Below, piece after piece: positions 3,606 to 4,140 of a stretch of DNA of 64,000 nt; positions within the stretch are counted from its first letter, which is position 1; each line of letters starts with the position of its first letter. The stretch covers positions 5,304 through 69,303 of the forward strand of contig JAUXUR010000079.1 of the NCBI GenBank assembly GCA_030680745.1. The letters run 5' to 3'. Both the position numbers and the translations under genes were made by a program. The stretch is from Alphaproteobacteria bacterium. Its GTDB lineage: Bacteria > Pseudomonadota > Alphaproteobacteria > JAUXUR01. The notes beneath the pieces were generated by a model. It was not told the origin of the DNA. It did no database searches and saw only the letters and a program-made list of their open reading frames with translations.

Positions 3606-3977
3606 TCCCCGCGACCATATCATTACCCATAAGTATGGCAAGTCGTAGTTCTAAACGTCCACCCCAGCTGTTTCCCTGGACCAATGAGAGCCCAAAGGGC
3701 TCGAATGCGGATCCAGGGTCCAGAAATAATCATGATCGAAGATCATGCTAAATATTTAAAAAACAAAGACATGCTCTTGCGAGCATGCATTTTAATCTGG
3801 ACCCTGGATCCTACTCGAAGCTTTGCTTCTCGCCTGTCCAGGGAAACAATGGGAGTAGAGAAAATTTTGAACATAAATTTAAAAATTCCCCCATAAATTG
3901 AATCAAACTATCCGAAAATAAATAATAAATATCAATAGCTTGAAACACTTATGGGTAATGATATGGTCGCGGGACGT
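3606..3977. repeat. Nested palindromic intergenic element. An outer ~30-bp inverted repeat encloses an inner palindrome made of two inverted family-B hairpin units.
   Basis: 3607-3636 ccccgcgaccatatcattacccataagtat is the reverse complement of 3947-3976 acttatgggtaatgatatggtcgcggg. Inner unit 3671-3722 (tttccctggacc...ggatccagggtccag) mirrors 3794-3846 around the centre catgctcttgcgagcatg. Confidence 0.6.
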
Positions 3978-4140
3978 AGGAAAGGGGTTGGGTTTATACT
4001 TATGGGTAATGATATGCCCGCGGCTTGATAGCTGGATCTACGGTGAAGAAGTGCAATGTAATTATTTGTCGAATTTTTCTAAAGTCTTATGGATCCCGCG
4101 GTCTTGCCGCGGGAAGTAGGGGGGTGGGCGTGTTTTCGCG
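3947..4140. repeat. Family-A MITE/REP-like repeat cluster with the motifs acttatgggtaatgatatgSNcgcgg and ggatcccgcgg..ccgcgggaagtagg..ggggtggg
   Basis: Closely matches 21815-22052, including the TIR-like CCTACGTCCCGCGRCTTG / CAAGYCGCGGGACGTAGG, and carries the GC hairpin tcccgcggtcttgccgcggga at 4093-4113. Confidence 0.6.

Follow-up and report, generated by a model that had tools for sequence, protein, structure and literature searches.

Evidence for three nested families of non-autonomous mobile elements at two intergenic loci of an alphaproteobacterial contig

Two intergenic loci in a 64,000-nucleotide stretch of the alphaproteobacterial contig JAUXUR010000079.1 (the window, with a G+C content of ~34%), one beside frr (locus 1) and one after a 160-aa open reading frame (ORF) first labelled prx (locus 2), are best explained by three nested families of non-autonomous mobile elements, a reading to which we assign a probability of roughly 0.85. 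The three are miniature inverted-repeat transposable elements (MITEs) with the 19-bp ends of a Tn5-like insertion sequence (IS), a host MITE made of a dimer of hairpins that resemble repetitive extragenic palindromes (REPs), and a palindromic passenger, family B. Locus 1 would be a host MITE broken by a 401-bp Tn5-like MITE that uses an alternative outer right end and has family B inside it as passenger, and locus 2 would be a 210-bp Tn5-like MITE with a whole host unit as its cargo. Nesting of selfish DNA in this way is of a known kind, well documented here, and no new system.

That the repeats exist is clear from their copy numbers. The 19-mer ACTTATGGGTAATGATATG occurs four times exactly in the window (3616-3634 on the minus strand; from 3947, 3998 and 22020 on the plus strand) against ~0.02 expected by chance, and CGCGGGACGTAGG, with up to 2 mismatches, occurs at 6 sites against 0.14 expected. 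An inverted repeat described as 30 bp long (3607-3636/3947-3976) is present, its perfect part being a 27-mer (3608-3634/3947-3973) that places the coordinates 1-2 nt away from those first given; it extends to 52 nt at 81%. Sequence of locus 1 does recur at locus 2, with 95% identity across the 57 nt of 3966-4022 and 21988-22044. The frr gene is read from the minus strand and stops at 4157-4159, which places the repeats downstream of it and not, as had been proposed, upstream; locus 1 sits between two convergent genes. Locus 2 is bordered by the stop of the 160-aa ORF (end 21786) and by the following gene, which has the same orientation and starts at 22132. Both loci directly follow stop codons. 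The original prediction of MITE-like mobile repeats nested in each other is upheld; its "family A", taken as one unit inserted into itself, is instead a chimera of two unrelated repeat families, in which the 19-mer is a transposon end and CGCGGGACGTAGG with the GC-rich hairpin is the putative landing target.

The 19-bp ends of a Tn5-like insertion sequence

The 19-mer CATATCATTACCCATAAGT/ACTTATGGGTAATGATATG is the terminal inverted repeat (TIR) of an IS of ~1.5 kb. Its intact copies are 1501-1524 bp long with perfect inverted 19-mers at both ends, and such copies occur in Legionella, among them L. birminghamensis and L. maioricensis; the same 19-mer terminates both these 1.5-kb copies and elements of 142-590 bp. 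In L. maioricensis (L069; L-numbers are our labels for fetched loci outside the window) and L. birminghamensis the 19-mer ends a 470-aa ORF, the right-hand copy containing the last transposase codons and the stop (…H-T-Y-G-stop) in Legionella. A related ORF on the metagenome-assembled genome (MAG) contig L060, broken near its N-terminus to leave a 434-aa stretch, likewise ends in the 19-mer. The 470-aa protein matches NF033590 (IS4 family) with 408 bits against a cut-off of 160, has the Pfam domains Dimer_Tnp_Tn5, DDE_Tnp_1 and Tnp_DNA_bind, and aligns over its full length with the Tn5 transposase 1MUH (E = 3e-29), with the Tn5 motif stretches DTT, DRE and Y-R-E-K conserved. It has thousands of relatives, mostly on contigs of ~1.5 kb, one of them annotated "transposase Tn5 [Legionella birminghamensis]". 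The predicted cognate enzyme is an IS4-family, Tn5-like DDE transposase. An IS200/IS605 TnpA, which had been suggested for this role, is contradicted by the perfect TIRs, 8-bp duplications and DDE transposase of these elements.

Target-site duplications (TSDs), whose presence the original prediction had marked for checking, place the boundary of the mobile unit at the 19-mer. Perfect 8-bp direct repeats lie directly outside the 19-mers in 14 independent cases, those of the window itself being imperfect, and their consensus S-Y-C-G-C-G-R-S is two-fold symmetric; a symmetric target is expected for a dimeric transposase of the Tn5 or Tn10 type. Some of the duplicated targets are non-palindromic and mutually unrelated (CTGCGGAG, CTTGTTAG, CTTATTAA, GCTGCACC, GCTGCAAC, GTCTTGAC, GCCTCGGC and GTCGCGGC). 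In a Coxiellaceae MAG nine copies have nine different flanks, each starting right after …GATATG, and assemblies break at the 19-mer. Because the duplications abut it, the flanks differ and assemblies break there, the element ends at the 19-mer and duplicates 8 bp.

These data also bear on a different proposal, in which the 19-mer, CGCGGGACGTAGG and the tips would belong to a single IS with long TIRs (~60-80 bp) that ends at the tips and has the 114-bp unit of locus 2 as its MITE. Such an element would account for the inverted sequence outside both 19-mers in L060, in the window pair 3616/3947, in L022 and in L054, for a polymorphic insert in L049 that is bounded by tips and not by 19-mers, and for the tag and tip common to host MITEs and IS flanks. 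It is, however, largely refuted by the 14 duplications, which abut the 19-mers at unrelated targets, and on these we reject it; the L. birminghamensis flanks rebuild one uninterrupted hairpin, the flanks in the Coxiellaceae MAG are unrelated to each other, and the similarity of a 373-nt MITE stretch between the window and L019 stops just outside the 19-mers plus arm. We therefore regard a long-TIR element as improbable.

Several points weigh against our explanation by nested Tn5-like MITEs. The duplications in the window are imperfect, at 7/8 (3616/3998), 4/8 (3616/3947) and 5/8 (locus 2), and the insertion history of the window copies is thus one that we infer from better copies elsewhere. 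Inverted rather than direct flanks are seen in L060, L022, L054, L110 and L115, and these require recombination between copies or alternative end usage. The GC-rich palindromic arms inflate apparent direct-repeat matches, so only the non-palindromic duplications and the cases with a triple arm are decisive. An intact transposase was found neither in this organism nor in its relative, and the activity, the 8-bp stagger and the target choice proposed for the Tn5-like element are read from sequence. Finally, the mover of the host MITE and the length of its duplication would fall outside this explanation.

The hairpin target and the structure of the two loci

The host hairpin is TCCCGCGG-CTTGT-CCGCGGGA, REP-like and tagged, and with its tag it has the layout GGAT-CCCGCGG-ACAAG-CCGCGGG-ACGTAGG. 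In the complete genome of L. birminghamensis the IS lies within GGAT-GTTGCGG-ACAA-[GCTGCAAC]-ACGTAGG and GCTGCAAC is duplicated, and the same arrangement is found in L119 (GTCGCGGC duplicated) and L019 (GCCGCGGG duplicated). In all three a complete hairpin lies in the left flank, and the right flank opens with the arm in a third copy and then ACGTAGG; L008, L012, L047 and the window have the mirror image, in which CCTACGT-[arm] stands to the left and [arm]-TTG… to the right. The insertion point is always the 8 bp adjoining the ACGTAGG tag, and a target sequence considered for the Tn5-like element is GGATCCCGCGGACAAGCCGCGGGACGTAGG. Together these arrangements identify CGCGGGACGTAGG with the GC-rich hairpin as the apparent preferred target, which would be no part of the Tn5-like element. 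The 64-kb window has only 5 CCGCGG sites, all of them within the two loci, and this scarcity elsewhere can alone explain why Tn5-like elements build up there.

By analogy with Tn5, a transposase dimer would bind both 19-bp ends and excise the element, which would then be pasted into the two-fold-symmetric, GC-rich 8-bp target S-Y-C-G-C-G-R-S with duplication of the target. In this alphaproteobacterial sequence of ~34% G+C such a target would be nearly confined to the stem of the REP-like hairpin, and therefore Tn5-like elements would pile up in host MITEs.

Uninterrupted hairpins form inverted pairs 77-105 nt apart which, with tips of ~20-45 nt, make up a standalone palindromic MITE of ~165-215 bp (for example L057 4985-5195 and L047 2110-2320). 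The hairpin pattern, allowing up to 5 mismatches, has 56 sites in the fetched loci and 3 in the window, mostly as inverted pairs, and stem variants are compensatory (CCCGCGG/CCGCGGG, CCCGCGA/TCGCGGG, CCCGTGG/CCACGGG and ACCGTGC/GCACGGT). The 7-bp stem is all G/C and the ACGTAGG tag is conserved; GTAG lies 3' of the hairpin, and the other strand has CGTC before the stem and ATCCA after it. No tip-bounded element larger than a MITE was present in the fetched loci, and the single pair of filled and empty sites leaves 24 extra AT-rich nt unaccounted for.

A short multicopy hairpin in inverted dimers, mostly 3' of genes, has the traits of a REP, and one could suppose that the GTAG hairpins are REPs which a Y1 (HUH) transposase of the REP-associated tyrosine transposase or IS200/IS605 type mobilises in single-stranded form, with the 19-mer as part of that system. 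The short GC stem, the 5-nt loop, the unpaired tag with GTAG (CGTC on the other strand) and the inverted dimers all agree with this (PMC3733652), as do the location of the hairpins 3' of genes and the compensatory stem changes. Against it, elements with the 19-mer have TIRs, 8-bp duplications and an adjacent DDE transposase, the GTAG tag follows the hairpin on its 3' side, the reverse of the canonical REP arrangement, and no Y1 transposase was noticed beside any copy, although no systematic search for one was made. To our knowledge, IS200/IS605 elements are moved by a Y1/HUH TnpA at subterminal hairpins and have no terminal inverted repeats, target duplication or DDE transposase. Movement of this kind is very improbable for the whole system; it could still hold for the host hairpins alone.

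The insertion of a Tn5-like MITE into a host MITE gives a consistent description of locus 1 (Table 1). Once 3616-4016 and one copy of the duplication are removed, the joined remainder can be aligned with standalone host MITEs from end to end, and in L047 the same site is filled with CCCGCGAC duplicated perfectly (8/8). The segment 3609-3981 (373 nt) is 95% identical to L019 5349-5721, at a different locus with a perfect 8-bp TSD, and in L026 the AATATCAATAGCTTGAAAC segment lies between the 19-mer (7854) and an N-terminal transposase remnant (7675-7499). The 32-nt junction seen at 3966-3997 precedes the 19-mer in at least 7 copies of the relative and at window 21988-22019. Use of an alternative outer right end would explain the tandem 19-mers, 51 nt apart: an earlier insertion beside a solo end would have let this outer end serve in a later move. 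L047 has the mirror arrangement, with a perfect duplication. A Logan contig of the same organism breaks exactly at the outer 19-mer (3998-4016), as expected of a repeat boundary.

Table 1. Features assigned at locus 1 (3582-4152) and locus 2 (21811-22060) of the window
Feature	Position	Strand	Remarks
Host MITE of locus 1	3582-4152		Split by the 401-bp Tn5-like MITE
Host MITE left tip and tag (…CTACTC)	3582-3607		Aligns with standalone left ends; tip like the …GGTAGTTAT tips in the relative
TSD copy 1, CCCGCGAC, in the tag-proximal arm of the host hairpin	3608-3615		7/8 against 4017-4024, CCCGCGGC
Left 19-bp inverted repeat CATATCATTACCCATAAGT of the Tn5-like MITE	3616-3634	+	Exact; same as the ends of intact Legionella IS copies
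Family-B palindromic MITE, passenger	~3660-3856		TIR GTTTCCCTGGAC at 3670-3681/3836-3847; central hairpin 3770-3787
Segment derived from the 5'-untranslated region (5'-UTR) at the IS left end (…AATATCAATAGCTTGAAAC)	3917-3946	-	Sequence match in L026
Inner 19-bp inverted repeat, putative older right end of a 350-bp MITE (3616-3965)	3947-3965	+	Exact
Captured target remnant: REP arm GTCGCGGG, tag ACGTAGG, truncated host tip AAAGGGGTTGGGTTTAT	3966-3997	+	Recurring junction
Outer 19-bp inverted repeat closing the 401-bp composite MITE (3616-4016) on the right	3998-4016	+	Exact
Host MITE remainder, with a core between its hairpins	4017-4152		Alignment with standalone copies L057 and L047
TSD copy 2 and degenerate left hairpin	4017-4039
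Right REP-like hairpin GGATCCCGCGGTCTTGCCGCGGGA	4091-4114		Fold -16.2 kcal/mol, z = -4.3; no T-run after it
Tag AGTAGG	4115-4120
Tip	4121-4152		Ends 4 nt before the frr stop codon
Left flank of locus 2: tag CCTAAGT and arm CCCGCGGG	21811-21828		5/8 against the right flank GCCGCGAA; decayed copy
Degenerate left 19-bp inverted repeat	21829-21847	+	13/19; IS 5'-UTR-like segment next, 21848-21867
Complete host unit as cargo	21868-22019		Tip, tag, hairpin 21896-21919, core, hairpin 21973-21996, tag, truncated tip
Right 19-bp inverted repeat of the 210-bp Tn5-like MITE (21829-22038)	22020-22038	+	Exact
Right flank of locus 2: arm GCCGCGAA, tag ACGTAGG, short tip TAGTTA	22039-22060

At locus 2 the host unit carried as cargo includes the ~114-bp unit that had been delimited by TIRs of 18 bp. 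The unit itself is confirmed (21889-22003; fold -67.9 kcal/mol, z = -10.7), its arms measuring 32 nt at 88% (21889-21920/21972-22003). At least 7 homologous copies of ~210-225 bp, ~72-76% identical, are found in the relative, and in L014 and L023 there are TSDs of 7/8 together with a third copy of the hairpin arm.

Family B is a MITE of its own, with standalone copies away from any 19-mer (L039 6920-7102 and L068 6961-7188) and a mini copy in L029. As DNA it folds with -51.5 kcal/mol (z = -9.4), and its centre at 3770-3787, for which a perfect-centre palindrome catgctcttgcgagcatg had been claimed, turns out to be a 7-bp stem with a 4-nt loop.

Other palindromes are found with the 19-mer. In loci of other lineages (L110, L115, L038, L041, L051, L010 and L140) the 19-mer ends lie within another palindromic repeat (AAAGGTGTCAAGTCTTGAC/GTCAAGACTTGACACC…), the perfect duplication in L140 being GTCTTGAC, which suggests that the IS family may generally land in palindromic repeats. 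Around the target hairpin of L. birminghamensis there is also a direct repeat of ~65 nt (CGCGCCCCGAAGGGGTGAGGAAGGAACGCAGTGACTGACG…; L073 960-1025 and 2715-2780), at about -160 and +95 of the IS site, which is another repeat family.

Carriers of the element and its possible transfer

The exact 19-mer was found at 71 loci in 25 assemblies in a scan of one genome per species, and on 66 metagenome contigs. Its carriers are Legionella and Legionellaceae MAGs, the isolates L. maioricensis and L. nagasakiensis, a Coxiellaceae MAG (~17 loci), the Alphaproteobacteria MAG JAUYSY (~25 matches), and single contigs labelled Parachlamydiaceae (L022), Neisseria (L060) and Woesearchaeota (L030), the binning of which is not trusted. 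L022, a contig of 3 kb, comes from the study that also gave the alphaproteobacterial MAG, and its flanks are of the alphaproteobacterial type; L060 carries an IS of the Legionella type, and L030 has the 19-mer without recognisable IS context. This spread through assemblies, metagenome contigs and the relative's MAG agrees with the dispersed family that the original prediction favoured; a segmental duplication between the two loci is rejected, as the modules recur at many loci of the related MAG and in 25 assemblies. Viral contigs gave zero matches to the 19-mer and to the hairpin pattern, and a phage or giant-virus link was rejected on this ground. A plasmid link was rejected too, as none of the relatives of the transposase in PLSDB exceeded 42% identity.

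JAUYSY is a close relative of the organism in the window, its locus L049 being 96-97% identical to window 6514-10409. A presence/absence polymorphism points to mobility: L049 has a composite of ~255 nt that the window lacks at 7637/7645. When the frr locus of the relative was sought by exact matches to the Tsf and Frr proteins, only a Logan contig of the same organism as the window came up, ending at the 19-mer. The window EF-Ts is 100% identical to a MAG protein labelled "Alphaproteobacteria bacterium" at NCBI; it has no relative above 63% identity outside its own lineage, and the next relatives (<=63%) are alphaproteobacteria. A tblastn search of the window gave no transposase homologue, and the MAG of the relative has only a 59-aa N-terminal transposase remnant beside a 19-mer, 80% identical to the Legionella-type protein. 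Such identity in hosts that differ at class level points to horizontal transfer, by which the IS would have been exchanged between Gammaproteobacteria and this alphaproteobacterium. A metagenome scan for an intact IS of the alphaproteobacterial type, based on the left-end junction pattern, gave zero matches, and the full-length copies in a scan with the plain 19-mer were all Legionella-like. The window copies are non-autonomous, could be mobile only with transposase in trans, and are probably decaying relics.

Further repeats and differences were seen in the window and its relative. A 1.87-kb segment with a 385-aa Ser-rich ORF, present in L049 (1991-3859), is missing from the window (10409-10428), so gene content differs between these close relatives. 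Another palindromic MITE of ~190 nt lies between convergent genes at 59716-59906; it has 29-nt arms with 97% complementarity (TTTTACCTCTCCCCTTGTGGGAGAGGTCG…), each of them a hairpin, contains GTCGCGAC, and has an 88.6%-identical copy in L057 (4048-4380) and a fragment beside a 19-mer in L014. A repeat of ~175 nt with inverted ends (ATACCCAAATAAT…ATCATTTGGGTAT) at 31146-31322, with copies 86-94% identical in L028, L046 and L063 of the related MAG, is probably a further MITE family. The region 91-2904 holds an 806-aa ORF followed by a 118-aa ORF, with 7 tandem copies of a 273-nt (91-aa) repeat that are 62-89% identical, in a stretch of 28-30% G+C, and its product looks like a repeat-rich secreted or effector-type protein. 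A 51-nt inverted repeat with 82% complementarity connects 20017-20067 and 51430-51480, 31 kb apart, and ATGATG/GTGATG-rich repeats with a period of 12-15 nt in a minus-strand ORF at 41497-41692 would encode a His-rich stretch.

Gene expression, related systems and significance

The GC-rich hairpins had been proposed as terminators, yet they are not followed by T-runs and none was called an intrinsic terminator in a consensus scan of both loci. The same scan gave zero terminator-like sites in locus 2 and one bidirectional terminator-like call at the centre of family B (3770-3787), where T-runs occur on both strands. An Rfam gathering scan of the window returned RNase P RNA and a tRNA only, with no structured RNA family at the repeats. 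At 3940-3967 (plus strand) and 3641-3614 (minus strand) there are outward sigma-70-like matches (TTGAAA or TTGCCA, 16 nt, TATGGT, with TG upstream), in which the last bases of the 19-mer form the -10 element; these are weak matches, to the consensus alone, and the two 19-mer ends could act as outward promoters. That the repeats are functional RNA or DNA elements kept by selection, as terminators or mRNA stabilisers for frr and prx, and not selfish DNA, accords with their position directly after stop codons and, at locus 1, between convergent genes, with their very stable folds, with the terminator-like centre of family B and with reports that REPs and MITEs affect 3' ends (PMC3733652, PMC5896051), but is scarcely credible given GC hairpins without T-tracts, a locus 2 without terminator-like sites, and copies that are ~72-95% identical, decaying and variably present between close relatives. 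Selection is at most an addition to the explanation by mobile elements, and any role of the repeats in the expression of frr or prx is speculation.

The element resembles Tn5/IS50 in the full-length homology and matching domain set of its transposase and in its 19-bp terminal repeats. One end of the element contains the tnp stop codon, as the inside end of IS50 does, and 11/19 positions of the 19-mer agree with the Tn5 outside end, a weak likeness. It differs in that the duplication is 8 bp and not 9, both ends are identical, and insertion is strongly site-specific, beside a hairpin tagged with ACGTAGG. The lineage would be a new, apparently unnamed, Tn5-like IS with hairpin-arm target specificity, and a text search of the literature did not find the 19-mer string in any paper. 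IS231A and MIC231 of Bacillus are of the IS4 family with MITE-like derivatives that carry passenger DNA, and IS231A inserts preferentially at a symmetric site, flanked by G/C, within the terminal repeats of Tn4430. They share with the Tn5-like element both passenger-carrying MITEs within the IS4 family and a target inside another mobile element, and differ in subgroup and ends, in a 10-12-bp duplication and in a Gram-positive host.

REPs have been described as targets of ISs from five families, including IS4 (Tobes and Pareja 2006, PMC1525189). That paper supports a preference of Tn5-type transposases for symmetric targets, and in the account it gives of Goryshin 1998 the Tn5 target is symmetric with G/C at its ends, a feature that the target seen here shares. 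All copies of ISRm22, an IS4-family element of Sinorhizobium meliloti, lie in REPs at a palindromic site, the hybrid flanks of some being attributed to recombination between copies (PMC1525189). The likeness to the system described here is in the IS4-family element in a REP palindrome and the hybrid flanks of some copies. ISRm22, in contrast, makes 6-bp duplications at the palindrome axis, whereas here 8 bp are duplicated in the tag-proximal stem arm and most copies are MITE derivatives that also carry the target as cargo.

QMITE2 of Coxiella burnetii is a MITE of 150-190 bp with TIRs and a GTAG REP that is a hot spot for IS1111 (Wachter 2018, PMC5896051); its copies lie mainly on the 3' side of ORFs, and alphaproteobacteria are reported to have related sequences (PMC5896051). 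Its likeness to the host MITE is one of architecture and role only, and its invader, IS1111, is of the IS110 family without TIRs and TSDs of the Tn5-like kind found here. GTAG- and CGTC-tagged REPs have been catalogued by Di Nocera 2013 (PMC3733652), the CGTC class predominating in alphaproteobacteria and having no known transposase. Tagged REPs are there recognised by a GTAG left unpaired at the hairpin's 5' end or by CGTC with a CCA tail, and CGTC families have 8-9-bp stems with A/T at the first two positions (PMC3733652). The host hairpin shares with them a short hairpin with a 5-nt loop, a conserved unpaired tag, inverted dimers and a location 3' of genes, and on one strand, where it reads CCTA-CGTC-CCGCGG… with …ATCCA after the stem, it resembles the CGTC class. 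It differs in a 7-bp stem that is all G/C, in GTAG on the 3' side, and in being embedded in a TIR-bearing MITE.

A further proposal, possible though on balance doubtful, is that the Tn5-like MITE also spreads REP-like hairpins as cargo, in a self-reinforcing nesting, and has been transferred with its landing pad between classes. Because the 210-225-bp family carries a complete hairpin dimer between its 19-bp ends, each transposition would plant two new targets. A Legionella MAG and this alphaproteobacterium both have a near-identical hairpin, CTGGAYCCCGCGGACAAGCCGCGGG, beside 19-mers, and, if the proposal is true, this sharing would mean that element and landing pad had passed together between bacterial classes. 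It would also provide a route, through a DDE transposase, for dispersing tagged REP dimers, the CGTC class of which has no known dedicated transposase. For annotation, the composite repeat is resolved into three mobile-element families, and the IS is given exact ends, an 8-bp duplication and a proposed hairpin-arm target. This aids the annotation of repeat-rich genomes in Legionellales, in Coxiellaceae and in the alphaproteobacterial lineage of the window, whose assemblies are broken by these elements.

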